Positions 16,639 through 61,792 are shown, counted from the stretch's first letter. The stretch is DNA of 64,000 bases from Xylographa opegraphella (GCA_022813865.1 JALDZX010000076.1:1-64000), one strand, 5' to 3'. The notes: generated from the sequence alone by a model not told the origin. Translations and numbers: made by a program.

Positions 16639-16992
16639 TTGCGCAATTGTCCATTCCCGGGTTCTGTGCGTAGCGAGGGGTACATATTATGATCATATAG
16701 CATAGCATGGACAACGGCGTTGAGCAGGGTCCTTTGAATGGCCGACTGAATGTGTTAGCGAATGAGCTACATGAGAGCAAAGACAACCAATCTACACATG
16801 CGAGTAATTCGTAAGACAATGCCGAGGGCAGTGACCTTGAACGCAAAAGCCATCTGTGGCTCTCATTGTGGCTGGCTTCCCACATTGCCGAGGCTCCTCC
16901 GTATCGATAAGCAATGCAACCCTAAGTCAACATACCATCAACGCAACTCGTACCTTTCCGGTTCCCCTTATGCGATACACATCCTCCAAACC

Positions 16993-17981
16993 ATGGCCGC
17001 CATCCTCCCCTCCCTGCCAGACGTCAAGCAGCTCAGCCCCCTCGTGACCCGCATCCTAGGCGGCAATCCCAGCAAGGTCCCGCCCCTCCCCACTGTTGCC
17101 CTCCTCCTCTTCACTAACATGCCCCAGTTCACCCTCCAAGGTTACCCAGCCTGCGCCCGCCCCACCCCACCCAACTAACCCTCCTCCCATCAGGCACAAA
17201 CACCTACCTCATCGGGCGCGGCCCAAGCCGCATCCTCATCGACACGGGCCAAGGCCTCCCGCACTGGAGCCACACGCTCTCCACCCACCTCACAGCGCAC
17301 AACCTCACCATCAGCACCGTCCTCCTCACGCACCACCACGCCGACCACACCCTCGGCATCCCCTCCCTCCTGGCCCTCTGCCCCACGGCCGCCATCCACA
17401 AACACCCCGCCGCGCCCTCCCCGCACGGCCACCACGCCGCCCTGCCCTCCACGCCGCCGCTCCTCCCCCTCGCGGACGAGCAGGTCTTCGCCACCGAGGG
17501 CGCCACCCTGCGCGCGCTGCACACGCCCGGCCACACAGCCGACCACGTGTGCTTCCTGCTGGCGGAGGAGGGGGCCCTGTTCACGGGCGACAACGTGCTC
17601 GGGCACGGCACCGCGGTGTTTGAAGACCTGTCGCTGTACATGGCGTCCTTGGAGCGCATGCGTGCGCATGGAGGCTGGACGGGCTGCGCGTACCCTGGCC
17701 ATGGGGAGGTGGTGGAGAGGGGGACGGCTCGGGTGGCGGAGTATGTGGCGCATCGGCGCATAAGGGAGGAGGAGGTGCTGGGGGTGTTGAGGGAGGAGGG
17801 GTCGCGGGAGGGCAGGACGCCCGGGGAGGTGGTGCGCGTGGTGTACAAGGACGTGCCGGTGAGTTTGCACGAGGCGGCGGAGGGGGGCGTGGTGCAGGTG
17901 CTGGGGAAGCTGGAGGGGGAGGGTAGAGTGGTGAGGGGGGAAGGGGGCCGGTGGAAACTCGCGAGGAAGGAAGCGTTGTAG
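16993..17981 (+). CDS. LACTB2-like metallo-beta-lactamase-fold protein
   Basis: Motifs RILGGNPSK|FTLQ|GTNTYL, THHHADH, HTPGH..DH, FTGDNVLG.GT and YPGHG. Contains a 13-nt microexon at 17128-17140. Confidence 0.9.
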
Positions 17982-18242
17982 AGATGAGGCGACACGGTAG
18001 CCTACATATAGAGGCGATATAGGAAACTTGGTGGCGTGTATCGCGATCGGAGGAACGTGCATAGCTTTCTGATGAATGCCCATTCGGTAAGGTCTATACA
18101 ATTGTGAAACCACCCGCTGTACAATATGTACGCATCTAAAGACTGCTCTCTACCACACAACTCTTCCCAGAAGCATTCAAGGTATTAATCGCACAAAACC
18201 CGTGGAAGCCGTTCCGGAATTACAGCAAAGGTCGCACATCAC

Positions 18243-20017
18243 TCACGCTCCTGTTACCAGACTCTCTTGCAGACGATAATTGCCTTCATGCAAACCTTTC
18301 AATGCCAACCTGCCCTCTTCGGTCAGTTCCGGCTTTCCGACCGGCGTCACACTTCCGGTGAAAAACCTGGGCTTCCACTCCTCGTTTTGATCTTTCCGTA
18401 TTACTACTTTCTCTCGTTGCCGCTCCTCGAGCTCAGTCTTTAGTTTGGTAGCCACTCCATACTGTCGACTCAGGATTGCTGCCGTCACATCATGCCAAAA
18501 TCGTCGACTTTCGTTTGGAAGCTGGTCAACCTCAGGTGGGATGATTTTCCGAATAGGGAACAGTGGCTTAAGGTCCACCAATACCACAGGTTCCTGCGCA
18601 ATGATAATTAGACAAAGGTAGTGAATGAAGCAAACCAAGTTTACCTTCGAGCCTGTCAATGTGTAGAAAACTTGATCATGCCAGCAGCCCTCGATACGCC
18701 CTACGATATCCTTCTCGGGCACGTCTTTAATCTTCATAATTTTATCTGTCTCTGGGTTATATCTGTACATAACGCCTACCACCTTGTTCTGTACCTTTCC
18801 TAGCCAGCCTTCCTCGATATAGTGTAAGATAACTTTCAACTTCGTCTTTGGGCATGTCACGAAACAGACATCGGAGACAGTCACCGAAAGCGAACCACGG
18901 AGTAATCCGCCCAAATGCGCGGCGGGATGAGTGAGCTGGTATTCCTCATTGTTCCTCCGCTGTATGTTGATGAAGATACCAAAGTTATGGGCCCCAGGAG
19001 TGACACGAATGCTTGTCCCAGTGAACTTGGCGCTGAGTTGATCAAATCCTCGAGCGCTGATACCTTTCTCAGGGCAGTCAACCCAGAAAGCCGAGACGGG
19101 AGGGTGATGCGAGGTTTGTTCGGTAAGATATGACACTCTCACGGGCTTATTGGTTGCATTGTTTCGTAGCGCACGGTCCGCATTTGTAACGATAGGTGGA
19201 GCATCATCCGTGACTTCCCAATTGCACTACTTCTGTCTTAGTCAGAGTCGCTTTCTGTGCCTCCAACCTACATACTCGGAAAAACTCCCCCAGTGCAGAG
19301 TTATACGGCTTGCATGGTTTCCCTTTCACGTATTTCTGCGATCATTCAGCATCATACATGGACGCAAAGGACGAGAGTAGCTATACCAAATCTTTCGTGA
19401 ACCAAAATCGCAGCACGGCAAGCATGCGCGCAACCTCATCTTCCGGATCGCCAATACTGTTCAGACCGTCAATCACTTCATCTGCAGACGGAGCAACCGC
19501 ACAACCTTATGAATGTTTCAGGTCGGTCCAAATAGTTCCAATACTCTAAACCGAGTTAGAGTGGCTTGTCATTATGATATCGGTGGTCTGTTCTTGCTCC
19601 GACCGAAATCACATACCGAGATTTGGTGTTGGCTCGAGGAGTTGCGCAGGTAATGAGAACCTGACGGAGGCAATGTCTGCAACACCTATGAACCTATGCC
19701 CGAGGTTAGCAAGCTCTTTTTGCTCCAGTATCACGAGATACCGCTCGGTGTCACTTCTGGGTTAAGGGGAAGCAGGATGTCTGAACCAAGCTGTACGATA
19801 AGATCACGGTCAGAAGAACGCAGGCATTAGGAACACCATACTTTCTTAGTATACTGAGAAAAGTCCTAAGCTTCGATTGATCATCTGGAGTTTTCTCTGC
19901 CCCAGTGGGCGCAATAGGTGGTGTGGATAAGGTAGGTTCTGTGGACATGGTCGAAGGTGCACTGGAAGGGGCCGGCGACTGTCGGTATATACTAGACCCA
20001 GCCGACGACGAAGCCAT
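18243..20017 (-). CDS. Oxysterol-binding protein (ORD only)
   Basis: OSBP signature EQTSHHPPVSAF, plus RFSLPAQLLEP, KPYNSALGEFF and LEERQR. Multiple introns. Confidence 0.93.
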
Positions 20018-23000: not shown

Positions 23001-24701
23001 CTCACTGTTTTACAGGTGGGGACCGGTGGAGCGCCCAGCGCACGGCACATCCCACCCTTCATCAGAGACGGCACGTTTTAGGCGCAAAGGGCCCAGGTCG
23101 ATAGCAGCATCAGCATGCGAAGCAGGGGATGTCCAGGAGAGAAGGAGCCACTCCGAGGGCCTCTTGCTGGGAACATGAACATGAACATGAGAAGCTGCAC
23201 GGCAGCGGGAGCAGCGAGGCACGGTACATGCCATCGGCCTGCTCCCCACGATGGCGGGAGTATGGGAAAGATAAAATTGGAAGCACGACGGATAGCACTA
23301 GGGCGGCAGATCAGCATTGCACATCGGAATCATCGATTGTGGCTGAGATGGACTCCTCGGAGTCGAATGGTGCTTTCCCTTTCCCCTTCCATCACCGGTG
23401 ATTGATCGTCGGGGCAGCCCCAATCGCGCTGGCCGAGACGGTGGGACTGGCCGGGCAGCTGTAGCGTGGGCGTTACGTGTACCCGTCCGCCGTTCACTGC
23501 CCGAAGGGGACCCGGTTGACGATGATCGCACGGGAGAGTTTTGGGTGCGACCGAGCCCGCGGGATTCCCTCCCCCTCGCCCAAGTTGTATTTTTTCCACC
23601 CGGGCTCGCCTGACGCAAAAAGACGGGTGCGGGCAGCCGAGTCGGCCTGTTTGGGGAAGTGATCGTCGTGATTCCAGCCACGACGACGTACATCGAACCT
23701 TTTTCGAAGCAGCGTTACGCTGCACCACCCGTAAATTGAGGGGGGGGGCAAGCCACGGAAGACGCGGCGGTGCTGCTGGAAGAGGCAAGGCAGCTCCGAC
23801 CGAGACAGGCCCATTCGCCGTGGCCGCCAAGACGACAGGCATGCTGCAGCGAGGGATGCCCTGTCACACTATGCCCAAAGAGCGCCAAGCGGACGCCCCA
23901 GTCATTTCGTGAATCGTGATGCGGTGCTTCGTCCGGGGTGGGAAGTGTGGCGCGTGCAGGCTAGTCTGTCACCCCATCTGTGAAGGCCCTTTCTTTCTGT
24001 CGTTGCTGCAATTTGAATGCGAATTGGGTGAGTTGATCAAACCCCCTCCCTCCCCCCGGGACTCCGCCAATATCGATCCCACGCATAGGGAGCGTGCCAA
24101 GGGAGCCTGCTAAACACGCTCGCCCTAGCCACGCGTGCCGGCGCCCAACCCTCTCCCCCCTCTCCCTCTACACCACCACCACTACCACTCACCCCCCCCC
24201 CCTGGCCTCTTCCCTTCCCGCCCATCCCATACCCACCGCTGGCCCCCCCCCAACTGACTGCCCCCAAACTGTGTGCTATTCTTCCTCTGCGACACCCGGT
24301 CCACACGAGCACGCGGCTGCTTAGGCCCATCCTGTGACGAAGCAATACCATGGGAGCTGTGCAAGCCCTCGTCGCATCCCAGATGGCGCTACCTCCCTCT
24401 GGCTTCGACTCTATTTAGCTAAACCGATTGGCACTCGCCGTCAACTGCCTGCACACGCTTCACATGCCCGGCTCCATGCTCCCAAGCCCCATGCTCCTTG
24501 CTGGTCAAACAGCACGACTCATCAAATACAATTCTCTGACTGCATCCGCCCCGAGCACCCAGCCTTAAGACTCCGAGCTGTCCCATCACGCTGGATCCCT
24601 CCGCTGCTGCCACATTCACGCCTTTTGGAACAGCCACCTTGATGTCGCTCACCTCACCTGTACCGCCGTGTATGCGAACCTGGTAGCGAAAAGGCAGTGA
24701 A

Positions 24702-27397: not shown

Positions 27398-29062
27398 GGC
27401 TAGACTTGGCCGCTGATACGACGACGACGACGATACCCATTTGCTTTTTTCGAACCCCGATCGCGGTTTCCCCGACACCTCGATCGCAAGTGTACCATTT
27501 ATTAGGACGGAGTTCTTGCGGCCACCGCCCGGTCATCATATCACGGCCGGACATTTTCTTACCAGTGCACTCGGAGTGGAAGTGCTCATATCTTGCTATT
27601 TGCTACCAGTTGCCACGGAAATTGTGAATATACCGACATGGGGGGCGGATCACATCTTTTACTTTGATACCATTTTTTTTTTCTTCTTCTTTACTTTTGC
27701 TTCCAGCCTTCTGGGCCGGTTGACTTTGGGAGATGATACACGGGTCTTCGAAGCAACGATTTCACGACACACGATTTAGAGAGCAAAGCCGTTCGATACC
27801 CAGCCGATACCAACCATTCTCCGCGAATTTCCACCGGGGGATTGGTGGCTACTGTTTCATTTATTTGATTTCGTTTTCCGGCCAATTCCGTACACGATTT
27901 GACTCCACTCCCCAGTCGTCCCCCTTCCCTCGCCCTTTAATTTCGTTCGCCAAAACAAGCAAATCTCCATGACACGCGCTGGAGACAAATTCGTGCTCTC
28001 CGGTCCACGGGCTTCCGTTGGCTCCGACCTTTCGAGTTCTCGTTCCGATGGCGGATGAGCAAGCACGGCCGCCAAGCGTCTGCCTATCCCTCCTCACTCC
28101 TCACTCCTCACTTCTTCCTCCTCCTCCGACAAAAAACGACGTGGCACCACCCACCAGGGATTCGGGGGGTGTGGCTGCTCCCTGTGGACCAGTAGAACTA
28201 GCTAGCTAGGGCATAGTCTGCGAGTAAAAAAAAAAAGATGAAACCGCTCTACTCGAGTCCTGTAGTCTGTGCTCCAATCAAAAGCACCGTGGTGGCAGTT
28301 CGGCCCTGTGGCTTTCTCCCGCCAGCAACAGCCGGGAGGAAACAGCGTCGATGTACTGTACTGTACGGTTGCTTGTCACTCGCGCCCCCAGTTTTGGTTC
28401 GGCGCGGACGGTTGGTGTTGATACGCGCCTGGTCACTTGACCTTTGCTTTACTTTACCTAGGTAGCCACTCTTACCCTTACCTTACCCTACTTTACACTA
28501 GTGCTTAGTGCATCCCTGTCCTTCTCATCTGCTGTGGCTCGACCCGCCCTGTCCTTCATGCCGGCTCTGCCTCCGCGGTTAAGCCTCCCCCTCCTTCCCC
28601 CTTCCTTCCCTCCCCTACCGTACCCTACCGATTCCCCTCTCCTGCGTACCTTACCTTACTGTACGTCCCTTACAAAGGCCCCCGGCAGACCGGCTGCCGA
28701 GCACGAACCCCGCTCCCTCAAGCCACGCCAGCCACGCCAGCACAGCACAGCACAGCACCAGCGCGACGCGACGACAAGGGGGGAGAGCCACTCCCGATCG
28801 CGAACGAGAAGACCCTGAAGCGTTAGGCAGGTAGGTAGGTAGATCAGGGTTCGCGTCTGGCTCGCTCCGGCCGGTCCGTGGGGAGCTTCACCTGTATCGT
28901 TGTCATTATTATTGTTATTATTGCAGTTGTTTTTGTGCATGCATGCATGTGTGTAAGGTATGCATAAGGTGGATAGGGTAAGGTAGGGTAGTGGGGAGAG
29001 CTTTCCAGCCCATCCGACTTGCTCGCCACAGCGAAGCGCCACAGGATGTTGTTCGTGCCTGA

Positions 29063-29131
29063 GGTAGGTAAGGTAGGTAGGTAAGGTAGGTAGGTAAGGT
29101 AGGTAGGTAAGGTAGGTAGTCTAGGTAGGTA
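29063..29131. repeat. (GTAGGTAGGTAAG)n / (GGTA)n minisatellite
   Basis: Directly visible 13-bp periodic repeat. Confidence 0.9.
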
Positions 29132-30116
29132 CTGTATGGAGGAGGGAGTACGTGACCCCGCTTTGGCGTGGCGCTGGTGGTGACGCGATTTGTGTGGCGC
29201 GAGGCTGGGGAGGCGGGGGGGTGCACGGCCACGGGGTTGGGGAGTTGTGGTGTTTTTAGGAGGGGCGGGGGCGGTGATTGGGAGGTGCTTTAGAGGAGGA
29301 GGAGGCGGAGGAGGAGGAAGAGGAGAGTTGGTGATTTGGAATCGTGGAGTAGCTTGCTCGAGGCGTGTTTGCGCATATGTGGGATGTGTACGTGTACGTT
29401 CTACGAAGTACCTTTCCTCTCTCGCGCTGCTTGCTTGCTTGCTTGTTTGCTGCGAACCGAGATCCGACCTTCACTGATCGGCACTCTTTTGCGCACCCTC
29501 TCCATTCTTTCTATTTTCGTATGCCTGCGTTCTCTCCGTAATTCTCGTAGCGGCCGGATCGGCACCCCGTCGCTCGGGCTTTACAAAACGTACCTTACCC
29601 GTACGATTCTGTCTACTCCCGACGCGCTGGCAACGGAGTGATCGGCGGTGTGGCGAATGTTCTTCGTCCCTCGATGTGGTTTACTACGTGTGCGTGCGTG
29701 CTTTTCCTACCGAGCGCTTGGGGCGCCGGGGGGGGTCGCTTGGGAAGTTCCGCTTCATGCTGGGAGGACCCTGAGCCGGGGGGGTGGAAGGGGTGCGGCG
29801 TCGATCGTACTCTGGGCGTTTTGGCGAGGTTTGGGAGGGGGGGGAGGATCGGCGGTGGTGTGGCGTGGCGTGGTTGGGTTGGTGTGGCTGCGCTTGGGGG
29901 TTTTGGGAGGGTAGAGGGGGGGGTAACTATGTCGTCGTTCTCGTTTCCGCCGCTCGTTGCGAGTGGCCCGGGCGAGAGAGTGAGGAGGGTGCGGAGATGC
30001 GATGAGATGGAGGGGGGTTTTTTTGGTGAGGAATGGGATCGGGAAGACGGGCTCGTCAGCATCGTTGGTGGGAAAGATCACATGAAGGAGTGGGCTACGG
30101 GGCCAGGGTGGTTGGG

Positions 30117-30166
30117 NNNNNNNNNNNNNNNNNNNNNNNNNNNNNNNNNNNNNNNNNNNNNNNNNN

Positions 30167-30228
<62 letters not shown>
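30117..30228. other. Assembly gap (50 N) followed by a 62-nt poly-G run
   Basis: N at 30117-30166 and G at 30167-30228. Confidence 0.95.
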
Positions 30229-31138
30229 CGCAGGAAGGGGAGCCGGGTGCGTGTGCTGCGCATAAACACCCGTCCAAGTCGAGAGTCGTGCCATTCTTTT
30301 CTCGCTTCTTCAACTGTGAGGATGTCTTGGCACTACCAACGAGCATAGCATGAATAATTCCCCGCCTCGCTCCGTGATTCCGGTTCGCTTATCTATTCAT
30401 GAATCCCTCCCCCGCCCCTCTCCGCCCTCCGTCCTCCACCCCTTGAGATTTGCGACGGGAAATAAGGGAAAAAAAATATCTCGGATTCGATGTTCCCGCG
30501 ACGGCGACGTTGACTTCCCACCCTGCACGAAGCTACGTTGTCTGCCCACCACACGGCCATGATCGATCGGGACTTACCGCTCTGCGGAAATCGCTTGTCG
30601 CTGTTGAAGTGCGTTAATAGAGAGGGAGGCCGAGGATTGAGATGCGCGCGGAGCGGGATGGAGAGCTGGGGCATTGAGGGGAAGATTCTGGGCGTTGGGA
30701 TCCTTCGGGTGGGTTATGTCTGCGAAGGGGGAGATATGTACGTCGCGGTGGGGGTCAGTATCGAAGAGAGGGTAAGGGGCGCGGACACTAGAGGGATTTA
30801 TGCAGTGGTTGGCGGCGTGATGATAGGAGCGCGGATTGCGCATATAATGTACATGCATTCGATACAGTCGATTACGACGGCCTTAGCAACCAGAGAGGCA
30901 AGTAAAAAGCCAGGGACTTTCGCGTTTCCAACTAATCGGTCTTTATATTTTCGATATACGTCTATTCGATGCCCACACGATCCCCAGCCCCAGTTGCGCT
31001 GAAAATACTCCTCCGCACGATACACCACCACTCCGATCCAACCATCTTGCCAGAACCAGCTCTGCACAGCTAATATGACCACACACATAATACACAATAC
31101 TAATCCCCATCCCAACCCCCCTCCCCGGCAACCCCATC

Positions 31139-32882
31139 TCACATCCACAAACACAACTTCCCACTCGCCGTCCCCCCCGCCACCCAGTCTTTCGTCGGGT
31201 GGAACTGCGCCACCGCCGGCACGGCGGTGATGCCATCCCCGCCCAGCTGCGCGAGCTGCTCCCCCTTGGCGGTGTAGATGTCCACGAAGCGGTTCATATT
31301 GCCGATGCAGAAGCGCTGGACGGAATCCGCGGGCTGGGCCTGCCATTGCGCGCGGAGGCTGCGGCACCTGGTGTAAGTACATACATGCACACGCACAAGC
31401 AAGCAGAAGGGGAGAGGGGGGATCCCGAGGCCTACATACATGGTCACCCATCTGCCCGTCTGGTTGTTATGCCGCACCGTCGCGCTCGGCTCCATGGCCA
31501 CTGCCTCGACGGTGTGCCCGGCCTTCCAGCCGCCCATGCCTTCGAACGAGTGGATCTTCACCGTGTCGTCGTAGCTCGCGGTCGCGACCTGCCCGACCGC
31601 GTTGAACGCCGCGTGGCTGACGCTCAGCCGGCTGAGATGCTCCCCCACGCACACCGGCGCCCGCGCGTCGCCTTTGCCTAGCATTTTCCGCAGGTCCCAC
31701 ACCCGCATGAAGCGGTCCAGGCTCGCGGTCGCGAGGAAGTGCGGGTACTGCGGGTGCATGGAGAAGCCGCCGATCTTCTTTTCCGAAAGCTGGTAGACGT
31801 CCGTGGCGGAGGCGGCGGGAGCCCGGGTGTCGTGTCGGCCGACGAAGCCGTCGAGGCGGGAGAAGTAGAGAACGTGTGGGGATAGGGGATCAACTTCGAT
31901 GCCGGAGAGGGGTTCATCGGCGTCGGAGTCAGAGGGGCCGTAGACCTCGGTGGAGGTGGATTTGGTGAGATCGAGGAGGCGGAGGGAGGAGTCGTAGGAG
32001 GCGGTGTAGAGATGAGAGGCGTTGAGAGGGGAGAATTGAAAGGCAGCGATGGTGCGGGTATGGAGGTGGAAGGAGGTGATGGCTGGAGTGGGGAGGTCAT
32101 CATCATCGAGCTCGGGGTCTTCGGGGTCGAGGTCCTCTGCTTTTATAGGTTCGGTTTTAGGCGCCGGATTGGTAGTCTGCGAGGCGTCGAAGATTCCGAG
32201 GTTGCCTAGTTTGTCGCCGGCAAAGATAAGTGCCTTCGACGGCTCGGGGTGGAAGCCAATGGAGTAGATCCGCTCGGGGGTGATTTTGATCCCTACGACC
32301 ATCAGCACCAGAAAATACAACACAACGAAAGCGCATATACTGACTATTCGGCTCGAATCCCTCATACAGCTCCAGACTACTCATCTTCTCCCTCAAAGCC
32401 CTCAACTCCTTGTCCGAAGTCTCCTTCACTTCCGACTCTCCGAAAGTCCGCTCGTACGGCTTCGCACCCCTTGAGAAGACATCCACCAGATAGTTCTCAC
32501 TCTTGTCCCACCCTTTCCCGGCAACAACGATGTCGGTCAAGTCCAGGTTGCCCGATACCCGCTGTCTTTTCGCTCTGGCGGCCTGCTGCACCGCCTCGTA
32601 CTCATCCTCCGCTTTGCGCTTCGCGACCTCGCTGTCGGCCGTCAAACCGGCCAAACGGGAAGACGTTCGGCGGGGAAGTACTTCTTCCTTTACCCGCCTG
32701 ACCGCGGACTTCTTGTGTGCTTTGTTACCGTTAGTAGCAGGTCTGCCGGCGGGTCGCCCAGCGGGCTTTGGTTGGAACGCTGCGCTGGCGGCGTCGAGGG
32801 CCAATTGCTTGATGAGGGCATCTCGTTCAGCGATGTTGGCCTGGCGCTGCTGCTCGTAATCACTGATCTGTACTTTAGCCAT
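31139..32882 (-). CDS. CMR1: WD40 DNA damage-binding protein Cmr1 (WDR76)
   Basis: Motifs [43 protein letters not shown] and [10 protein letters not shown], ending ASGKLCLWM. Two introns. Confidence 0.93.
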
Positions 32883-32946
32883 ATTTCTGTGTGTTCTGAG
32901 GCTTATTGGTACTTCCTGACGACCAATTGTTGGTTGAAATTCAACA

Positions 32947-33962: not shown

Positions 33963-33996
33963 TGGTCAATATCCTCCGAACTGTACATGCTCCAAC

Positions 33997-48248: not shown

Positions 48249-48450
48249 GCCTTGCAGCTACTATTCTTGCACAGCTCAGAACTTCCTAGCTCTCCTTGAA
48301 CTATTCTCCCAATCGTATCATCATTAAGCCGGTCTATCAATCATAGCCGTTGTGTGCCTTGCAGCCACTATTCTTGCACAGCTCAGAAACTTCCTCGCTC
48401 TCCTTGAACTATTCTCCCAATCGTTTCATCATTAAGCCAGTCTATCAATC
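48249..48450. repeat. Recent tandem duplication (~95-bp unit, period ~107)
   Basis: 48249-48342 is nearly identical to 48356-48450. Confidence 0.9.
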
Positions 48451-48884
48451 TCCCAAACTATATTATTCTCTTAGCCCTGTACGACCCTTTCTTACTGCTA
48501 CGCTCTCGCTGAAGAGGACATCAAGTGCATCACTCATTATTCCAACAAACAACGCCCACCGCAGCCTATCGACATAGCAGCTCCGGTCCGTCCAGCACCG
48601 CCAAGCGGAGCAGAACAACGTTTCTCAAAGAAAAAAGTGTCCGATTCATAAAAACAGCACGATTGTCAAGTCCGCACAAAGGCAATTGTCCCAAAACAAA
48701 GCCCAAATCGCGAATAAAGAACTAAACCCAAGCCCACATACATACACGCTCCCATCCGATTTCCCTCCCTCCCTCTCCTCTCCTTCTCTGCACACCCGTC
48801 CCATCCACCGCACCCACCCATCACCGCTGCGCCAAAATCTCAAACTCAAACCCACCCACACATCATCCATCCACCCCCCCCCCC

Positions 48885-48920
48885 NNNNNNNNNNNNNNNN
48901 NNNNNNNNNNNNNNNNNNNN
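48885..48920. other. Assembly gap flanked by poly-C
   Basis: 36 N. Confidence 0.95.
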
Positions 48921-49800
48921 CCCCATAACATCCCCCCCCCCGGCACAACAATGCGCCTCCCCCCCCTCCTCACCCTCCTCACCGCCCTCGCCCTCTCCTT
49001 CTCCTCCTCCGGCCACACCTCCCTCCCCCTCACCCCCATCACCCCTCCCCCCTCCCCTCCCCTCCACATCCTCAACCCCGACCCCCCGGCCCCATCCGCC
49101 TGCACCGCGCCAGCCGCGCACACGCCGAGGCGGCCGCAGAGGCCGCGCTGTAGACGGTATACGGGCACTACGGCGGCGACGGGGGTGGTGGGGGGTGGTG
49201 GTAGGAGAGGAAGGGGCAGAGTGGGGAGGGTTGGGGATGGGGGAGCGTGAGGAGCTGGAGATGAGGCCGGAGCCGGGGCTGGAGACTCGGTAGGGGTGGG
49301 AGGTGCGGGTTTCGCGCTGGGCGCGAAGGGGATAGTTTCCGTAGATGGGGGTAAGGTAAGGAGGAGAGGAAGGCGGGAAGGGAGGCAGTACGTCTTTCTA
49401 GTCTAGGGGTTCGCTTTAGCTGGGTCTGACGAGTTGATCCTCCGGTACCTTATTCGATGCGATCGAGGGCGTGGTCGAAATGACGAGATCGGTGTCGATG
49501 TGCGGCCTTCGGGACGATCTGTAGACTAATGACTTGATGACTTAATAACTGAAGGCTCCGAAACGGGCTGCGCCTGCGAGAGTCTTGCGACAAGAGCTAA
49601 ATCTTCTCGGTAGTAGTTAGCTAACCTACAATCAAAACATATTTCGTGTTCATTAACGACAAGATTTTCCGCCATGCGTTGCCAACATGTCTTTTCATTC
49701 CGCGTCTTGCAGAAGCACAAAACCCCGAATTTGCCCAGCGGGCCGAAAGAGTAAATAGTCATACACATCCCTCTTCCCTCTCCCACTTATCGTCCCGCGC

Positions 49801-51408
49801 CTACGCCCTCGCCCCCGTGATCGGCCGCCCGACCTGCTCGCTCTGCAGAATGACAATGCCAAAGGGATCCCTGTCCCGCTCGCTCACCTCCACCAGCACC
49901 CCCTCATCCTCGACGGCATCCTCCCACCCGTCGCCGCTGACGCCCTCGTCCCTGACCTCGGCGCGGACGCGCTTCCACTCCTCCCGCAACACCGCCGCCA
50001 GCTTCTCCTTCATTACGCTGTGCAGGAAGCCCCGCTCCGTGTTGCTGTGAAAGAGCGTGATGACGCTGGCGCCGCGCTCCGTTGCGGCCAGCGCTTCGTG
50101 GTGGGAGAGCTCGCCGGTGAAGAGGAGGTCGGCGTCGACGGCCTTGAGGACGGAGCCGCCGCTGCCGGCGCAGATGGCAGCGGTCGTGATGTGGATGTCT
50201 TCGACTTGTCGGGACTGCGGGATCGCGACGGGGAAGCCTTTCGGGCTGCCGACTCCGCGGGCGATGCGCTCGATGAGGTGTGTGAGGGGTTGGGGGCTGG
50301 TGAAGGTTACGAGTCGGCCCATACCGGCGTTGGGAAAGCCTGCCAGGAACGGGGTCAGAGAGAAGAGTAGGAGGGGGCGATATCCAGATTACCTTCAACG
50401 CCGGTGACGGGATGAATAACGGTACGTTTGTGACTGGCCGAGGAGCTTTGGGTTGAGTGTCAGTGGGTTTTCGCTTTCATGTCTTCTCCTCAACAATATA
50501 CGCACGGAGTCAGATCTGGCTGCTCTTTCTCCCTCTCCCTTTCCTTGTGGTTCGGGTACGTCGGCCTTGAGTATGAGCGCGCTAGCGCCATCCTTTGTAA
50601 CTCTTTCTTATGCGTGCTCTTTTGCGCACTTTTCTCGACGAATGGGTCTTCAAGCGGTTTGGAAATTTGATCATCACTTGAGTCGGTGACTGGAGGGCTT
50701 GACTCGGGCTGCTTTGCGGTTTTAGTGGCGGGTTCAGGTTCTGACAAAGTGCCTGTGAGAATGTCGGCAAGCCAGTCGCCTAGCCCTCCTGGTGCAGCAT
50801 CGACGGCCGTGTGAGGGCTATAGACCTGACTCAACAGACTTAGCATGTCGAAACTCGGACTAGAGATGTCGAGCTTACGCTGATGCCTTCCAAGGCTAGT
50901 CGTAAAAGTGACTGTTGTTGCGAGTCGGCTAAGGTGAGCGACTTGAGGCCCCTGAAAATTATGGGATCTGGACCACGTAAGTCAGATTGGCGACCCTCAT
51001 GAAGTATAGAAAGCATATTTTACGATATGCGACGACTACGCAATGGTTGTTTTCGATGGCCTCGTCTGCGACAGCTTTCGTCAAGTCCACTGTGAGCAGC
51101 ACGGAGTTCATCTGCCTTCGAATGGGGTCGAAAGGAGCCTCGAGTAACACTACAAAGCCGTTAATGACACGAAAATCCAGACTACCGTTGTCCAACAGCT
51201 TACGCCCGGTATTGTCGAAGCTCTTGTCGGCCAATGCTTCCGGGTACCTAAAGTAAACAAAGCCCGTCAGCTTCGTTCGTGCGAACAGTGCTTCCCTACA
51301 AGCGTACAGCTTCCTCATAGAATTCACCACCGCCCTTGTAAAGGGTGAGGCCTTGTCAGTGGTATACGTGCTCATCCTGGCTGCTTGTGCCACTGTTCTG
51401 CGCAGCAT
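49801..51408 (-). CDS. NIF3: NIF3-like protein
   Basis: Motifs LYPEALADKSFDNTGLLL, LLTVDLT, YHPIIF, YSPHTAVD, GMGR, ICAGSGGS, TGELSHHE and HSNTERGFL. Multi-exon. Confidence 0.93.
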
Positions 51409-52420: not shown

Positions 52421-53439
52421 CTACCAGTCCTTCAGTACCTTTTCAGCTGTTGAGGCTGTAAGGAAGTACTAATTAGCTCCGGAAATAACAATGATCATTT
52501 GATGTCAAGTGGAAATACATACCATCCACGCCCGTGTTGTCAGGCTCTACGTGGACTTGCTTAACCTTTCCGTCTTCGATCACCAGCGCATAGCGCTTGC
52601 TCCTGTCGTCCCCAAACACAGCTGCGCCGTCGAAAGCAAGATCAAGAGCGCGAGTGAATTCGCCCGTCGGGTCTGCGAGGAAGCGAATCTGTAGGTAATC
52701 AGTCATGGAATGAGAAGAACGAGAAGCAAGAAATCGCAAGACAGCATTCAGTTAGTGATATCGACAAGCTGTATCTTAAGGTAGGTAGGTAACTCTAATA
52801 GAGTATGGCCGACTTACGCCGCTAGCGTTGCTTGGGTCGAGAGCTGAGGCCCAGGCCTTCATGCTGTGGTTGTCTGAATTAGCAGGGGCGTGGTCCTAAC
52901 TCAGGACGTGTTTGACTTACACGAAAGCGTCATTGACGGAGACCACAAACACATGTCCAGCCGAAGAGAGTTTAGGGTGATTGATGTAACTGGGTATGTG
53001 GGAATTCGAGCATGATGGGCCTGGAGTGTGTGTACCTTAGAGTCAGCCGAGGTGTTGATGCCCTACTGCTAAGCCGCAATAGGGAGTGAGCTAGTGGGTT
53101 GTCCATTTTGGGAACTCTTTTGGGGTCGCCTGTGAGCTCAACAGAGAGCAAGCATTTATTGATGGGATTGGAAGATGACGCAATAATGCTTGTATGAGTG
53201 TAATGGAGAAACCTACTGAAGGCTGCCGGCACACCGATGATCAGACCGTTGCCCACCAACTCCGTCGCCAGGTTCACCTTATTCCCGGGAGAATTCTCAT
53301 GCAGGACTGCCAAGTTGGGCACGCTATCACCCACGGTGACATATGCGGGAGCGGAAGCATGGAATGCAGCTCGGGCATGTAGCTGTAGCGACGACGTCCG
53401 AGGAAGACGAGGGAGTAGCCGCCGTGTGGAATACATCAT
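52421..53439 (-). CDS. Peroxiredoxin, Prx5 family, with a probable mitochondrial presequence
   Basis: Motifs GVPAAFS|PSCSNSHIPSY, VSVNDAFV, IRFLADP.GEF and RSKRYAL. Arg/Ser/Leu-rich N-terminus. Multi-exon. Confidence 0.92.
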
Positions 53440-54696
53440 TGCAAATGCAATAGGGAATCCTCTATCTATCGAGTCTTGACGACAGCGTCGCACAGGAGGC
53501 AATGATTGTACTACTTGATCGGACGGCCCCTCAGTTATCCAGGTCGAATTGCCGGCCTCTCTCGGGAATGCTTCCGGCGTCAAGGTCGTTGTCGATTGAG
53601 GATAAAACAGAGAAGTCCTTGGTGCAGGGGAGGCCCCAGACTAGGACTAGACGGAGATCGCCGCTCAGGGATAAGTGCTGCTTCGGGCTCATGATCGGAC
53701 GCTGACGTAGCCAATGACATTCATTCTATTCGAATGTTTTCCGCCATGCTCCTGCCGCGCTCGTCGGGATTGGATTGCACAAAGCAGCGGACTTCTCATA
53801 TCGTACTTATGCTACCTGGCGGCGTCGTGATGATGACTGATAGAGATGAATGCCCAATTCGTTCCAACTTAGCAAGTGCACTGCCGCGCACATCTGTAGG
53901 CCGCAACCACCTCCATGTTATCGTTTGTATCGCTTTCATGGACTATGCAGCATGATACACGATTGTGCCATCGCTTTGCCTTGCTGTCGATCTTGACAGA
54001 ATCTCCGGCCGTGGTCCCGCATTTCCGATTACGAGTACGGATGATGGACGGAGGATGGAGTTAACCTTCAACAAGGCCGGCAGCTACCTCAAGCGGCCCC
54101 CAATCGGCCGTGATTTTGCACCCCAACACAACATCAGAACAACGATAATCCGCAGACGACAACGGATGCGAACTGAGATTAGATAATACACTTGACCAAT
54201 CGAGTATAGCATCGTCGAAATCACGAGGCAACGATAGCTTGAAGAAGCCTAGCGGTCTTCCGGCATCCGCTGTGCACCTCCCGCCGCACCCCCCTCCCCC
54301 CCCCCAGGCTCAAGGAATTCCCCCAATTCTCCAGAAAGCACAACTCCATCGCTGTTTCAGCCCCCCCCAACTCGCTGTTCGGCCACATAGGCATCCTGTT
54401 TATCGCACACAGAGCGTCGCTCGTCGAAAGCGCATCTCTAGACCATCCCGTCGTGGTGGTGGAAAACTATTCGCTATCGGAACTGACCTTGCGCCCGGGC
54501 CCCATTCAACATCCACAAGCCCCATTCTTCATTCGGTCTTGTCAGCTAGCCCCCCCCCAGCTTGGAAAACACCTTCTCCGCTTTCACAACGACACATCAA
54601 GGAATGAGCAGGAAGGCGGCATAGCAGCATTGGATCTGACGGCGCTTTGGTGATCCGCATCCTCGCCTCGAGGCTCAACTTGCACATCCCAAGTAA

Positions 54697-56888
54697 ATGG
54701 ATGGAAGTCAGAATGGCGGCGCCGTGGGCGTGAACAATTCGAGTGATTTTGTATGTCGCATGCTGGATCGATAGTCTGTCATGGTCATTCGCTGACGCCG
54801 ACTTAGGTGCGGAAGTTGTACAAGTACGGGGCTCCGAAATCCAGTGGAGACGTTGGGCGGGATCTTGCATGAGTGCGCGATGCTGACGTACAGCATAGGA
54901 TGCTCGAGGATCCATCGTATGCATCGGTCGTCCGCTGGGGCGACGAGATGGATAGCTTCGTAGTACTCGAAGTAAGTACCCTGTCCGGCATTTTGTCAGC
55001 GAACTTTCAGCTGAATTGCGGTGCAGAACGAACGATTCACCAAGTCCATACTCCCTAAGCATTTCAAGCATAGCAATTTCGCAAGCTTTGTCCGACAACT
55101 GAACAAATACGACTTCCATAAAGTCAGACATAACAATGAAGATAATGTGGTGTCGCCTTACGGACCGGGGGTAAGTTCGTGGTCAGAGACGCTATGAAGC
55201 GAAATAGCTGATGGAAGCAGGCATGGGAATTCAGGCACCCTGAATTCAAAGCAAATAACAAAGATGCCTTGGACAACATCCGAAGGAAAGCCCCGGCACC
55301 TCGAAAGCCTACCCAAATATTAGACGAAGCTTTGCCCACACAGCAGATGGACTTGGTCAATACCCAACTCGTAGCAACCCAACAACAACTTCAGCAGCTT
55401 CAGGAACGATATAATGAACTGAGCATGCATCATTCCTTGCTCCTGCAAGAGCTGATTGGGGTGCAGAAGACCGTGGTCAACCACGAACATGTAATGCAGA
55501 ACGTTATGAATTTCTTGCACTCGGTTGATGCGAGGCAACGGCGAGATAGCAGAATTGGCGTACCGTTCCCTCAGGCCGGAACGAATGGCGCGGCCGCGAA
55601 CGCTGGGGAACCGTCATTGGCTCCGTTGGACGATGAGCCCGCTTCGCCGTTGGCCAACGCATCGAAGCTTCTGAACGATCTCAACGCGGATGTCCAGCTT
55701 AACTATAGGAATCTTGAACACATGAACGAGTTGCACAATCGCGCCATCAACATGTCAACACCTCCGCCGGACTCGGCAGGAAGGGCTGCAAGAGCACTCA
55801 CCTCGGGAGGCTCAAGTGGCTCCATGGGTTATGCAAAATTGAATGGAGACCTGGACAATGTTGTGTATCCAGTTGGACAAACCAACGGTATCGACCCCAT
55901 GTACAGTGAGCATGTCCATAATATTCCGTATCCGATGCCGTCCGAGAAACCCAACCCCAATGACCCTCGAAATCACTATAACGATAGTCGTAAGAAGAGC
56001 ACTCAGGTAGATCCCGGGTGGGTACGGGCGCCGCAGATTTTGTTGGTGGAAGACGACCCGACGTGTAGGAGGATAGGGAGCAAGTTCCTATACTCGTTCC
56101 ACTGCGCCATCGATAGTGCTGTAAGTTGTGCTCCCTTTGCATGCAGTTCCAAGCTGATGCTGCGTAGTTTGATGGGCTCGAAGCTGTCAATAAGATGAAT
56201 GCGGGCTCCAAGTATGACTTGGTGTTGATGGATATCATCATGCCCAACCTTGACGGGGTTTCTGCCTGTCACTTGATCCGTCAGTTTGATGCAACACCAA
56301 TCATTGCGATGACATCGAACATCCGGAGTGACGATATCTCCATGTATTTCCAGCACGGTAAGATCCCGTCATGCAGCTTCGGGCGCCGAAAGCTAAACCA
56401 TCGTAGGCATGAACGATGTTTTGCCCAAACCGTTCACCAAGGAAGGCTTGCTGAACATGCTTGAGAAACATCTCAGTCATCTGAAGAAGATGCCGGACGG
56501 GATTGACATGGTGCCAAACACGGCATCGACCATAACCCATAGCTCGAACGCACAATCCGTCAAAGATGAGAGCTCGCCGGGTCAATCGCCTTCGACAATC
56601 TCCAATTGGAATTCGCCGAGTCAATTTTCCGGTATATCTCCAACCGGCTCGAACCAATTTATGCAACCGGTTCATACGCCCACCGCATACGGAATCGATC
56701 ACAACGGCATGCAGTTTCCGCCGCCCCAGACACCCCTCGGAGCACCTCCTCGACCAGCCAATCACCGGCGGCAGATCTCGGAGATGAGTGGTGGAATTGA
56801 CGAGGTTGCGAATGACCCCAAAAGACCCCGGATCTATGCACAGACGAACGCAGCAATCAACACGATGCGCAGAGGTCCGGCAGGATGA
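54697..56888 (+). CDS. SKN7: Stress response regulator with HSF DNA-binding and receiver domains (Skn7/SrrA/Prr1)
   Basis: Motifs SDFVRKLYKMLED and [20 protein letters not shown], a coiled coil, and receiver motifs LLVEDD / LMDI / MTS / KPF. Confidence 0.95.
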
Positions 56889-57774
56889 CCTGAAGCCGCT
56901 GCCATTCGGTCCCTCGGCAACACCCGCTCATGGGAGGAGAACAGGCAGGCATATTGCATGCACGGATTCGCCGCCACGAAGTACACAGCCAAGAAGTGAG
57001 GTCAAGGGCAGGCTGTGATCACCTTAGTGATACTCACTATGTATTAGCCTGCATCCAAGTAGCGGCGCAAGGGGAGGGTGGTCGCATGATTTGGCGCATG
57101 GCGCGTTATATGGATGACTATAGTTCACGACGCCGGCTTCGGTTTGAGCCCATCATGCGGCTATACGGCGATTGATAACCGTATATACCGCACACAGCCG
57201 GGACCATAGGACGGCTTAGCAATTTCTATGAGAAAGCTATTCAATGTACAGCAAGTATTTTGGTGATCAGATTCCATGTGTTTGGCAATATGAGAGTTTG
57301 AGCGAGTCGTGGTTTGCCAAGGTAGTAGTCGTTTGATTTTGGGTACTGACCACGCCTTTACGACGTGAATTCCTTCGGAAGCACAATAAGAACAATGCAA
57401 GTGGGGATTCCATCGCTCTTATGCTCCGGTGAAGACCCCGTCCGGCCACGGAAATCTAGGCCAGCATCCATGTCCCGAGCGTGTGGTCGGCCGCCAGATC
57501 CAGGCCCTCCGCTTTCGCTTGGCAGCGAGAGAATCCGCGATGTTTACCTGCCTCGCCTGCGTTGCCCGCCCCCAACCGTTACGCTAGAGCCTCGAAGCTC
57601 CACTAGCTCGAGAGGTGTCAAGGGGGAAAGCTGTAGGGCTACAGGGGGCAGTTCAGCTAAAGCCCCACTGAACCGGCCAAGCACACCCCCCCCCCCCCAT
57701 CCCTTCGCCGAAAGCAGAGCCGCCCACTATTACTATTTTCTGCGTCATCCAGAGTCTGCCTTGAACAGCTCACA

Positions 57775-60019
57775 ATGGCACCAAGAACTGCAAAGGGCAA
57801 TGCGGCAAAGCAGAAGCCGAAAGAAGAGCAAAGAGAAGATACCTTGCAAGCGGTGGTCAGTTCGGAGACTCTTGCCTTTACAGTGCTTGCCCGACTGATT
57901 TGATCTGGCGTAGGTTCTGACGGATTCGTACGAGCGCAGATTTACACCATTTTCTCTGGAGCGGCCTCGGGTATGAACTGAAGCGATTGAGTGTTTGGCT
58001 TGTCATGGAGTGCTCTGGATGCTTACGGTTGTACACAGTGTCTCCTCCCCCTCGCAAACACCCCATTGATCGAATATACCCTCGAGTTTCTCGCCAATGC
58101 CGGTGTGGAGGATATATTCATCTATTGCGGCGCTCATACCGAGCAGGTTGAACAATATATAAAGTATGTGGTGTGACTATCGGAAGGGATATTTGAGTCT
58201 CCATTACTTATGATATCCCAGTTCTTCAAAATGGAAGCTCCCTACCTCTCCCTTCCATACTCTCACCCTTCTCAAATCGACCGCTACCTCTGTTGGCGAT
58301 GCTATGCGCGATCTGGACAAGAGAGATTTGATATCTGGCGACTTTCTTCTCGTCTCCGGGGACGTTGTCTCCAATCTTGCTATCGAACCTGCTCTGGCGA
58401 AACATCGCAGTCGTCGGGAGAAAGACAAGAACGCCATAATGACCATGGTTCTGCGCGAGGCAGGGTCAGAGCACCGGACCAAAAGTCGAGGGAGAAAACC
58501 AATTTTTATTATAGACCCGAGAAAGGAGCGGTGCTTACATTACGAGGAAATGACTCGAAGGCCTGGCCGAGGGCGGTATGTTAATATCGATCCGGAACTA
58601 CTCAGCACGCACGGAGAGATTGAGGTCAGAGAAGACTTGATTGATTGCTACGTGGATATCTGTACACCAGATATTTTAGGGCTATGGAGTGACAATTTTG
58701 ACTATCAGACCGTCCGGAAGAGCTTTCTATTCGGCGTTCTCAAAGATTACGAACTGAACGGGAAAACGATACATACGTACATCGTACGCGATCAGTACGC
58801 AGCAAGAGTGAGGAGTTTACGAGCATACGATGCAGTGAGCAAGGACATCATAAGTCGATGGACCTATCCGCTGTGCCCAGATAGCAATCTGGTGAAAGAT
58901 CAGACTTATCGCTTGGAAAGAGGCAAGACCTATTTTGAGGACGGGGTGGTTCTGGCTCGAGGTAGCGTGGTCAAATGCAAAAGCATTGTAGGCAAAAACA
59001 CGAGCATTGGGGAGGGGAGCACTGTGGGTGATAGCGTTTTGGGGCGACAATGTCACATTGGCAACAACGTGATAGTTGAGGGCTCTTACATCTGGGACGA
59101 CGCCGTCGTTGGTGACGGATCGGTCATCAAGCAGGCGGTCATTGCGAACGAAGCAGTCATAGGCCGTAACTGTACCATCGAGCCCGGAGCTCTGATCTCT
59201 TATCGAGTCCGTATAGCGGACAATACCACCGTCTCGGGAGACAGTCGACTCACAACCGCTAGTCCACCAAACACCGACACGAGCACGCAAACCGACACCA
59301 ACCTCGTCGGCAAAGGCGGCGAAGGCTACGGCTACACCTCCGACTCCGACGCCGACTCCGACAACAGCGACGACTCAGCCCACCTCATCTACAAGCACCC
59401 CTCCGCCACCTCCTCCGCCTCGTCCGTGTCCACGATCCACCCCGACGACGACACGGGGCCGATGTACGTGCGCGACAGCTCGCGGCGCGAATCCTTCATC
59501 TCCGACCACTCGGACGAGTCCACGGCGCAGAACCGCGACTTCCACGTCGAAGCCACGGCCTCGATCCTCGACGGCCTCTCCAAGGGCGACTCGCCCGACG
59601 TCATCCACCTCGAGCTCCTCAGCCAACGGCTCTCCGCCAACGCCGACGACCACATGATGCGCGCGGCGCTCGTGGCCGCGTTCATGAAGCGCATCTCCAA
59701 CATGACGGACGCCGGCGCCGGCGCCTCCGAGGCCGTCAAGGCCGTCTTCGGCACGTACGGCGATCTGCTCGCCAAGATGGGCATCGCCGACAAGGCGGCG
59801 GAGGAGAAGGCCGATCAGGTCGATTTCTTGGCCCTGGTGGAGCGCGAGTGCGTGGGCAGGGCCAAGGGCGAGAGCTTGCTGCTCTTCGTGGCCAAGGAGT
59901 GCTACGTCCTCGACGTCGTGGAGGCGGAGGGCGTCGAGCAGTGGTGGGTGGCGGGCGCGGGCGCGGACGAGGGCGTGAGGCGGCTGGTGAAGGATTTCGT
60001 CGAGTGGTTGCGCACGGCC

Positions 60020-60052
<33 letters not shown>

Positions 60053-60100
60053 GAGGGGAGTGAAGAGGAGGGGAGTGAAGAGGAGGAGGAGGAGGAGTGA
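57775..60100 (+). CDS. GCD6: Translation initiation factor eIF2B subunit epsilon
   Basis: Motifs LQAVVLTDSY..RF.PF and CLLPLANTPLIEYTLEFL, hexapeptide repeats, a W2 domain, and an acidic tail. Confidence 0.95.
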
Positions 60101-60351
60101 GCGCGCTGGCTGGGAGGGAGAGATGGTGCGGGTGCGTTGTTGGGGGGTCTGTAGGCTGCGGGGTTGGGTTGTAGCGTATCTCGCTAAACGGAGAAAAGAA
60201 AAATATGTAGATGTCTGGGAAACGTGTAGATGAGATGCGGCGTCTGCATCGTGCTGCGTGCTTTGCCTCCGTTCGATATCCACACCAACCGAACAGCACG
60301 CTATGCTCCAACCACATATACACCCCCTTCCCCTTCCCCTTCCCCTTCCCT

Positions 60352-60921
60352 TCACCTCACCCCCTCCCTACACCCCCCCCCCTCCACCCCCCTCTCCCCA
60401 CCCACCATCCGCCTCCCCTCCCCCGCCGCTTGCACCCTCTCCCCCGCCGCTTGCACTCTCTCCCCCACCCTCTCCCCCACCCTCTCCCCCACCCCCTCCC
60501 CCCCCCTCCTCCTCCCCTCCCTCTCCTCCCGCGTCAACACCCTCCCCCTCTCCGCAATCTCCTCCCTCGCCGGCGCCACAATGGCCGTAACGACATGCCT
60601 GATAAGCCGCGAATGCCGCTCCGGCGCCATGCGGATGATATCCCCCGTGCGCAGCGCCGCCGTCGGGTCGCTGACGAGGTGGTGGCGGGAGATGGTGAAG
60701 TGCTAAAAGGCGGGGGGTGAGTGGGTTTGTTGGTTGGTGGGTGGGGGGACGAAGGGGGGGGGGAAAGGGGAGGGGGAGGGGGGGAAGGGGGAAAGAGCAC
60801 GTACTTTCTGGATACGCGCATTGTAGATCTGTTTCGTCGTCCGCACTTTGGCCGCGTTCATCATGCGGCCGGCGGAGATGACGACGGCGGTGATGTCGGC
60901 GAGGAGGGGGGTAGGGTGCAT
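60352..60921 (-). CDS. MRPS17: Mitochondrial ribosomal protein uS17m
   Basis: Exon 1 VVISAGRM..AAKVR..QIYN.RIQK, intron 60703-60804, and exon 2 HF...HLVSDP...LRTGDII...RHSRLIRHVVTAIVAP together match the S17 OB-fold pattern. Confidence 0.75.
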
Positions 60922-61792
60922 GCTTGCTTTTGATTGTGTTGTGTCGGGGTTGGGTGAGGAGAAGTGGTAGTGGTGAAGGAGGATATTAACCCCCCTCGTA
61001 CGCGCGTGAGTCGTGGGATGGTAGCTGGCCGGTGTGAATGCAGCTGCTGATGGCGAGCGCGCAGAAGGCCTGGCGAACTGGCGGGGGCAAGTGCGCTCTT
61101 GTGTGTTCTGGCCGACAGGGTTGTTGTTGTCGTCGTCGTCGTTGCTGGCTCGTGAGCAGATGGATGGATGGATAGATGGAGGTTGGGTTTGGAAGCCGTG
61201 GATGTTTTTGCCGTGCATTGGTGCGGGTGCGGTGCATAAGGGTTTTTTATGCGTCTTGGCATGCATGGGTGGGCAGGGATGCTAGGGCTGAGAACGAGAT
61301 CGGACCGATGCTGCCATACGGAGATACAATAGGTATTGAAATGGAACGCTCCAGCCCAACGTGATAGACGGTCGGGAATCTCGACTGTATAGAAGCCTGC
61401 TACGATGTCAATCTGCAAACTAGCCTGCCTTTTTGACTTTGATGGCTTTGCACATCAGAATGCTACAGCCCAAGCCCTCGAAGGAACGCTGGCTTGATTC
61501 CCCGACACGAATACTTTACTGAAGCATCTGAACATAGCCAGGAAGCTCCAGTGACCACGATACCAAGCCCCCACTGCACATGATGACTTCCACAGGAACT
61601 TGAGACGATCGACTCCATTAATTACCACGACACAAACGTAAACCTACTAAAACACAGCCAAGAAGGTAAAACTAACCCCATCCCCTGTCATTTTCCACCA
61701 TAATAAAATACCCGTGCCTTGCCCGCGCCTTGCCAACCCCATTATTCTCCGTAGCATTACCGAGGTAACAAGCTCGGCCTTCTCCACGCTTT

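Follow-up and report, generated by a model that had tools for sequence, protein, structure and literature searches.

Kilobase-scale islands with mirrored C-rich and G-rich arms near gene 3′ ends in the lichen fungus Xylographa opegraphella are candidate gene-conversion hotspots

A 64-kb stretch of the genome of Xylographa opegraphella, a lichen-forming Lecanoromycete (GCA_022813865.1, JALDZX010000076.1:1-64000; the window), carries 12 islands in which, on the plus strand, a C-rich left arm gives way to a G-rich right arm across a peak of G+C content (GC), situated at the 3′ ends of genes and between convergent genes. The whole analysis covers this window together with proteins of relatives. 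We consider the islands to be best explained as position-stable gene-conversion hotspots with strand-specific repair of heteroduplex DNA, a reading to which we assign a probability of roughly 45%. A long-lived, position-stable and nonadaptive bias acting on DNA would, on this reading, drive A/T to G/C together with a strand-specific swap of G for C, such that the strand running 5′ to 3′ toward an island centre would become C-rich and the strand running away from it G-rich.

Composition profiles computed at 400, 200, and 100 nt recovered all nine C-to-G flips listed for the plus strand by a first-pass annotation of the window, two of them with weak C arms (29.4-29.6k and 30.3-30.55k, skew -0.2 to -0.3), and added three more at about 7.9k, 54.6k, and 62.1k; among these additions, the island at 54.2-54.9k is weak and that at 61.5-62.3k has a weak G arm. 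Island units measure about 0.7-1.2 kb and their arms about 0.2-0.9 kb, with arm skews of -0.27 to -0.79 (C) and +0.35 to +0.57 (G) over 150-625 nt and z scores that reach -11.9 and +10.6. Skewed arms numbered 22, whereas permuting the identity of G and C among the positions occupied by either base (S positions) gave 0.06 on average and never more than 1 over 200 runs. The islands are given here with a gene map that is rough, being based on open reading frames (ORFs) and Pfam matches:

7500..8560, island at the 3′ end of Inp1 (minus strand, ORF 7800-9248, stop 7800); C arm about 7564-7838, centre about 7870-7960, G arm about 8089-8563.
16914..18038, island spanning the entire LACTB2-like gene (plus strand, ATG 16994, stop 17981, two C-rich introns); C arm 16914-17463 (GC 0.66, skew -0.53), centre about 17546-17563 (GC 0.71), G arm 17664-18038 (skew +0.54).
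28450..29390, noncoding island in the spacer between CP2 (plus) and CMR1-like (minus); C arm 28514-28713, centre about 28760-28800, G arm 28889-29388.
29400..30290, noncoding island; weak C arm 29400-29600, centre about 29620, strong G arm 29739-30288.
30300..30900, noncoding island; weak C arm 30300-30550, centre about 30582, G arm 30639-30838.
30964..32163, island in the last exon of the WD40 CMR1-like gene (minus strand, ORF 31142-32380, stop 31142); C arm 30964-31213 (3′ untranslated region and stop), unskewed middle 31200-31780 with about 0.9 GC at third codon positions (GC3), G arm 31814-32163.
48264..49463, island in the convergent spacer between COG6 (plus) and NIF3 (minus), codon periodicity weak (0.22); C arm 48264-49113 (strongest at 48664-49113, skew -0.73), centre 49126-49151 (GC 0.76), G arm 49189-49463.
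49689..50388, island in the last exon of NIF3 (minus strand, ORF 49804-50388, stop 49804); C arm 49689-49988, centre about 50038-50088, G arm 50189-50388.
54200..54900, weak island; C arm about 54200-54600, centre about 54598, weak G arm 54700-54900.
59260..60213, island in the final 850 nt or so of the eIF2B-epsilon (GCD6) gene (plus strand, stop 60100); C arm about 59264-59713 (C at third positions, C3, 0.62-0.82), centre about 59773, G arm 59864-60213.
60264..61288, island over the putative uS17m gene (minus strand, last-exon ORF 60355-60702, stop 60355); C arm 60264-60588 (skew -0.79), centre about 60626-60661, G arm 60664-61288.
61589..62300, partial island at the 3′ end of an unnamed gene (minus strand, 61796-63926, stop 61796); C arm 61589-61938, centre about 62125, G arm rudimentary.

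The strand flip is coupled to the GC peak. When islands were called from GC alone, skew was higher on the right than on the left in 10/10 calls (200-nt window, GC of at least 0.65) and 9/10 calls (300 nt, at least 0.62); at looser thresholds the figures were 11/14 and 6/9, the exceptions being a broad GC-rich region at 23-26k and the merged double island at 59-61.2k. GC is 0.62-0.76 at well-paired C-to-G flips (6/6) and 0.44-0.55 at the G-to-C flips between islands (6/6), which supports the mirror symmetry in the earlier proposal of a localized, centre-symmetric process. Arms have GC of 0.55-0.69 with skew of 0.3-0.8 and coincide with the GC peaks, and the two arms of an island are similar in strength and length. 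The centres had also been described as CpG-rich: the product of C and G contents does peak there, but the observed/expected CpG ratio is about 1 (0.9-1.4) in islands, centres, and flanks alike, unlike a CpG island with its ratio raised above a depleted background, and the apparent CpG richness arises because C x G is maximal where skew crosses zero. In pooled arms, the major S base rises from 0.245 to 0.465 and the minor S base falls from 0.245 to 0.15, while A and T drop about equally, from 0.255 to 0.18-0.21; both A/T-to-G/C (W-to-S) change and exchange between G and C are therefore needed. Pooled AT skew is nearly flat: +0.04 for C arms against -0.09 for G arms. No shared motif was visible within 60 nt on either side of the 12 island centres on inspection by eye only.

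The bias targets DNA rather than protein or codon choice, because third codon positions, introns, and islands lacking codon periodicity are all affected. As had been noted, third positions switch from C to G in mid-gene: along the LACTB2-like exon sequence, C3 falls from 0.78 to 0.14 while G at third positions (G3) rises from 0.14 to 0.78. In GCD6, C3 is 0.82 at 59264-59413 and G3 is 0.64 at the gene end, and in the uS17m last exon G3 is up to 0.94 in the coding sense. Compared with four control genes, COG6, ATG9, the AAA gene, and OSBP, island GC3 is 0.86-0.97 versus about 0.45-0.5, and C3 or G3 is 0.78-0.94 versus about 0.2-0.3 each. Both LACTB2-like introns match their flanking exons in C-richness. 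The three islands at 28.45-30.9k have GC of 0.55-0.65 and show no three-base periodicity (spread at most 0.21 versus 0.34-0.57 in coding islands). Protein sequence follows, the LACTB2-like protein being enriched in H/P/T/S/L in its N-terminal half and in G/V/R/E in its C-terminal half.

Two side observations concern these same loci. The noncoding island at 28450..29390 contains TACCTTACC-like repeats to the left of the centre (28440-28660) and GGTAAGGTA-like repeats to the right (29066-29130), which are one microsatellite grown in mirror image on either side of the centre at about 28760-28800. The deposited LACTB2-like protein, P0001 (311 amino acids), has an insert of 17 residues, VPPLPTVALLLFTNMPQ, which none of the 12 aligned orthologs shares and which corresponds to an in-frame, stop-free 60-nt intron at about 17069-17128 (GT...CACTAAC...AG); the P0001 annotation probably retains an intron.

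The islands lie at gene 3′ ends and between convergent genes, as the first-pass annotation had held: all seven genic islands sit at stop codons, with the centre 120-430 nt upstream of the stop and the distal arm ending about 50-300 nt past it, and five of the six convergent gene pairs bear at least one island. The CP2/CMR1 and COG6/NIF3 spacers hold additional noncoding islands, and composition profiles showed no island at the 3′ ends of OSBP, ATG9, and the gene at 14139-15493. That annotation had also stated that the polarity overrides the coding strand, and this part does not stand. A C-then-G order is its own reverse complement, so the same plus-strand polarity for plus- and minus-strand genes is automatic, and a rule tied to the coding strand predicts it equally; in all seven genic islands the C arm is upstream and the G arm downstream on the coding strand, and the skew may follow the transcription strand. 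In the five long genes (GCD6, CMR1-like, NIF3, Inp1, and the gene at 61796-63926), the C arm abuts the G arm within about 0.4-0.9 kb of the stop in every case and lies at the gene 5′ end in none, and for this reason we favour an island unit over a gene-end effect. The amplitude and GC, the geometry, the occurrence in noncoding DNA, and the similarity of the two arms together favour a self-contained, centre-symmetric unit.

The age of the islands was approached through proteins, using as a proxy the skew that the amino-acid sequence by itself would imply for codon positions 1 and 2. For three window genes the top protein match is a 100% identical X. opegraphella protein, and orthologs of window genes were found in seven other Xylographa species, Lambiella insularis, and Trapelia coarctata, and gene order appears roughly kept since the locus-tag numbers of the LACTB2-like gene and GCD6 are 13-24 apart in four species. 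In four Xylographa species, the expected position-1/2 skew of the LACTB2-like protein is -0.24 to -0.52 over residues 1-160 and +0.31 to +0.61 over residues 201-311. The Lambiella and Trapelia proteins are shifted in like manner (down to -0.11 for one bin), those of Icmadophila and Thelocarpon fall in between, and five outgroups range from about -0.18 to +0.28 in the N-terminal part and +0.10 to +0.43 in the C-terminal part. GCD6 has a weaker shift of like kind in bins 401-450 and 601-650. The trapelioid clade shows, as far as the amino-acid proxy reaches, a derived enrichment in H/P/T and G/V/R. The uS17m orthologs of three other Xylographa sources (P0241, P0242, and P0243) all end in low-complexity G/E/R/V tails that vary in length and sequence (60355-60552 in the window, minus strand), and the arm that is G-rich in the coding sense is translated into a fast-changing protein tail. 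A Pfam search of the uS17m last exon itself gave no match, and the putative identity rests on the ortholog P0241 carrying PF00366. Because relatives share the amino-acid shift while their uS17m tails differ, the position appears lasting and the sequence in turnover: judged by these protein comparisons, the islands are old and fixed in place.

Islands that keep their place while their sequence changes have a counterpart in Cryptococcus. The available portion of PMC3390403 describes GC-rich peaks of about 0.6 kb, in the flanks of MAT and in the RPO41-BSP2 spacer, that are conserved in place and not in sequence, are proven gene-conversion hotspots, and are attributed to GC-biased conversion. Yeast likewise has GC3 peaks at recombination hotspots, according to the accessible part of PMC2997560. 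The Xylographa islands share with these systems GC peaks of sub-kilobase to kilobase size whose position is conserved and whose sequence is not; they differ in having a flip of strand skew, none being mentioned in the portion of PMC3390403 available to us, and their hotspot status is putative. GC and GC3 rise over kilobases in coding and noncoding DNA alike, as at hotspots of GC-biased conversion. We favour the hotspot reading because GC3 of about 0.9 across a kilobase, in coding and noncoding DNA and at stable places, is the classical look of GC-biased conversion, and because arm size is comparable to that of yeast conversion tracts (560-2100 bp, as cited in the accessible part of PMC3390403).

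Under this reading, recurrent meiotic (or other homologous) recombination would initiate at fixed hotspots, located some hundreds of bases before the stops and in the spacers of convergent genes, and GC-biased conversion would raise GC over about one conversion tract. In the heteroduplex on each side of the break, the 3′ tail of the broken chromosome would pair with the donor-type complement; if G/G mismatches were corrected, mostly to donor, and C/C mismatches largely escaped repair, alleles with C on the tail strand would be over-transmitted. Their gain for each pair of events would be u(k-0.5) copies, u denoting the share of C/C mismatches that stay unrepaired and k the share of G/G mismatches resolved in favour of the donor. 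The outcome would be C on the left and G on the right without AT skew, matching what is observed. Two points in the accessible text of PMC3218862 lend this step plausibility: at ARG4 and HIS4 in yeast, C/C mismatches are repaired 3- to 5-fold less well, and G-to-C or C-to-G single-nucleotide polymorphisms are 5-fold enriched among yeast postmeiotic segregations. Recombination would be the most likely driver of what we observe, and C/C escape is our proposal for the polarizing step. The broader proposition that strand-specific conversion biased between G and C leaves a lasting polarity mark at fixed hotspots is our own, and we regard it as decidedly doubtful; a weaker form of the same drive could underlie the 5′-C/3′-G skew of fungal genes generally.

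Several observations weigh against conversion hotspots. The stop codon falls in or at the edge of the distal, sense-G-rich arm in 7/7 genic islands, which ties the islands to transcription units. Amino-acid identity per bin is only slightly lower in islands, and the same parts of the proteins are less conserved in outgroups. Arm pairing within 350 bp gives a tie, six C-to-G pairs versus six G-to-C pairs, that fits events proceeding from the edges inward, at the AT-richer G-to-C valleys, equally well. Hotspots in budding yeast lie in promoters, where the model would not predict the C bias that the coding strand shows at fungal 5′ ends. Finally, human meiotic hotspot flanks, as described in the available portion of Hinch et al. 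2023 (PMC7615360), undergo C>N and A>N mutation on the single-stranded 3′ tail; this shares with the islands a mirror-image, kilobase-scale strand asymmetry around a break site, there produced by resection and gap filling, but the tail signature depletes C on the strand that is C-rich in Xylographa, and it is a mutation-rate effect that builds no GC3-saturated islands. That signature alone would give G on the left and C on the right if breaks occurred at island centres.

The most substantial competitor, possible though on the unlikely side, is a transcription-coupled mutational asymmetry, that is, the known fungal gene skew strongly amplified in a subset of transcription units, for example, by R-loops or polymerase pausing near termination, with the noncoding islands reflecting read-through or unannotated transcripts. 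McLean and Tirosh (2011, PMC3315797) reported for more than 60 fungal species that coding strands lean toward C in their upstream part and toward G near the gene 3′ end. In the accessible part of that report, A/T show little position effect, fourfold sites, untranslated regions, and amino-acid usage are affected, G bias is strongest at stop codons and C bias at promoters, the skew is modest, scaled to the gene, and negatively correlated with GC content, and the cause is given as unknown. The Xylographa islands share the coding-strand polarity (7/7 genic islands), the flat A/T, and the effects on third positions, noncoding DNA, and amino acids, and the position of the stop in the sense-G-rich arm is as this explanation expects. 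So are the weak whole-gene gradients of the AAA and OSBP genes, which have the same sense as the fungal coding-strand skew, and a slight mirrored AT skew (A with C, T with G), whose direction is the one that C-to-T loss on an exposed strand would give. A further point in its favour is a C-only arm upstream of the CP2 ORF:

24089..24588, C-only arm upstream of the CP2 ORF (plus strand), GC 0.62, skew -0.41, with C11 and C9 runs.

This arm has no G partner and is probably ordinary fungal 5′-end C bias. The stretch around it, 22.4-27k, is moderately GC-rich throughout (0.54-0.64) and lacks the island pattern.

The differences from the fungal skew are of position, scale, and form. As far as the accessible text of PMC3315797 allows comparison, the Xylographa C arm lies near the 3′ end, not at the promoter, and upstream gene parts show no skew or a reversed one: GCD6 and NIF3 have none over their 5′ two-thirds, the 5′ region of CMR1 (32300-32700) is G-rich in sense, the reverse of the fungal rule, and the DNA-methylase gene at 2110-4746 has a gradient slightly opposite to it. 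The arms are extreme, with skew of +/-0.5-0.9, form discrete units of about 1 kb that are centred on GC peaks with GC3 of 0.9 or more, and are anchored near stops irrespective of gene length as well as in noncoding spacers. A transcription-coupled asymmetry leaves that GC3 unexplained, the more so as the skew in PMC3315797 is anticorrelated with GC, and it does not place the C arm away from the 5′ end as in 5/5 long genes. Nearly equal arms centred on a GC peak are not expected from two unrelated processes at 5′ and 3′ ends, and C-to-T deamination would reduce GC.

Selection offers another account, which we regard as improbable: the islands could be bidirectional terminators or insulators in which polymerase arriving from either side halts in the distal arm, where the nontemplate strand is G-rich and prone to R-loops or G-quadruplexes, so that the arms shield closely spaced convergent genes. 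In work by Ginno et al. from 2012 and 2013, GC-skewed CpG-island promoters and terminators are said to form R-loops, with terminal skew at closely packed human genes. The islands resemble these in being GC-rich with a G-rich nontemplate strand, and differ in that CpG observed/expected is not raised, centres lie in coding exons, and an equally strong C arm lies upstream. The presence of islands at 5/6 convergent pairs and the end of the distal arm about 50-300 nt after the stop suit a terminator, as do G-quadruplex-type motifs on the outward-running strand (9/9 plus-strand motifs in right arms and 12/16 minus-strand motifs in left arms). Selection would, however, have to maintain about 1 kb at GC3 of 0.9 and rewrite conserved proteins such as the N-terminal half of the LACTB2-like protein; one island spans a whole gene, three stand in tandem within one spacer, the 3′ ends of OSBP, ATG9, and the gene at 14139-15493 do without, and arm sequence is not conserved.

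Replication origins, which the first-pass annotation had entertained, produce a C-to-G switch on the plus strand at a fixed point, in bacteria and in human skew domains, with a G-rich leading strand on both sides of a fixed initiation site. The C-left/G-right polarity and the weak association of T with G and A with C fit. Origin skew is sparse and extends over a replicon or domain, whereas the islands are dense and short: 12 occur in 64 kb, some 0.6-1 kb apart in tandem, their skew is limited to 0.2-0.9 kb and then returns to about zero, their centres lie in conserved coding exons, and their large GC rise is left without an explanation. We therefore consider origins highly improbable.

An assembly or sequencing artefact has some points in its favour. 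Both N gaps had been placed in island clusters, and both do sit in island arms beside homopolymers: the gap at 30117-30166, in the G arm of the island at 29400..30290, is followed immediately by a run of 62 G (to 30228) that may be real or may be an artefact of assembly or chemistry, and the gap at 48885-48920, in the C arm of the COG6/NIF3 spacer island, has C11 and C10 runs on either side (48874-48941). Logan contigs of run X1, probably the source reads and so not independent data, match 49088-60011, 60124-60313, 60530-61114, and 61189-62500 with 0 differences and at an even depth of about 155-164, and break in low-complexity arms. A search among sequencing runs returned X1 as the single run containing this sequence and no RNA run that did. 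Two further runs, X2 and X3, come from distant organisms, share with the window only brief conserved segments of 80-90% similarity, and lend no independent read support. The other form of this explanation, true quasi-palindromes or foldback elements, had been suggested as hairpin- or G-quadruplex-forming sequences; runs capable of forming G-quadruplexes do occur along the arms, but an inverted-repeat search returned only poly-C/poly-G matches of 30-54 nt with 71-77% complementarity and short ones of 22 nt, and palindromes were rejected. Artefact or palindrome is scarcely credible, given that the LACTB2-like, GCD6, NIF3, and CMR1-like reading frames cross islands and align end to end with orthologs in other species, that the orthologs of relatives carry the same amino-acid bias, that a second assembler (same reads, partly independent) yields most island sequence unchanged, and that arm sequences are not complementary.

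The islands are an extreme, discrete form of the known fungal strand bias, probably coupled to a recombination-type GC drive. New are their amplitude, their link with a GC peak, and the fixed paired-arm unit of about 1 kb that stands beside stops and between convergent genes. A literature search, supplements not covered, turned up no account of such islands from lichen fungi or from Xylographa; one candidate, "Runaway GC evolution in gerbils," was rejected since "GC skew" there denotes W-to-S bias and not strand skew. The cause of the C-to-G skew of fungal genes has been open since 2011, and here the skew is near saturation and in discrete units, in a clade whose many sequenced sister species allow substitution spectra to be polarized and rival causes to be separated. 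The bias is strong enough to rewrite conserved proteins, as in the two halves of the LACTB2-like protein and the G/E/R tails of uS17m, and it breaks short-read assemblies, with consequences for phylogenomics, scans of nonsynonymous to synonymous substitution rates (dN/dS), and annotation in lichen fungi. If the islands are hotspots, they would provide a recombination map for organisms that are very hard to cross, and if C/C escape operates, sequence by itself would reveal hotspot centres and heteroduplex tract lengths.

Two minor features of the window fall outside the islands. The plus-strand ORF at 2110-4746 encodes 878 amino acids that include a domain of the C-5 cytosine DNA methylase type (PF00145, E 3.9e-30); with an observed/expected CpG ratio of about 1 throughout, the window shows no trace of CpG loss driven by methylation. 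Thirteen consecutive C stand by themselves at 57686-57698, close to the 5′ part of GCD6.

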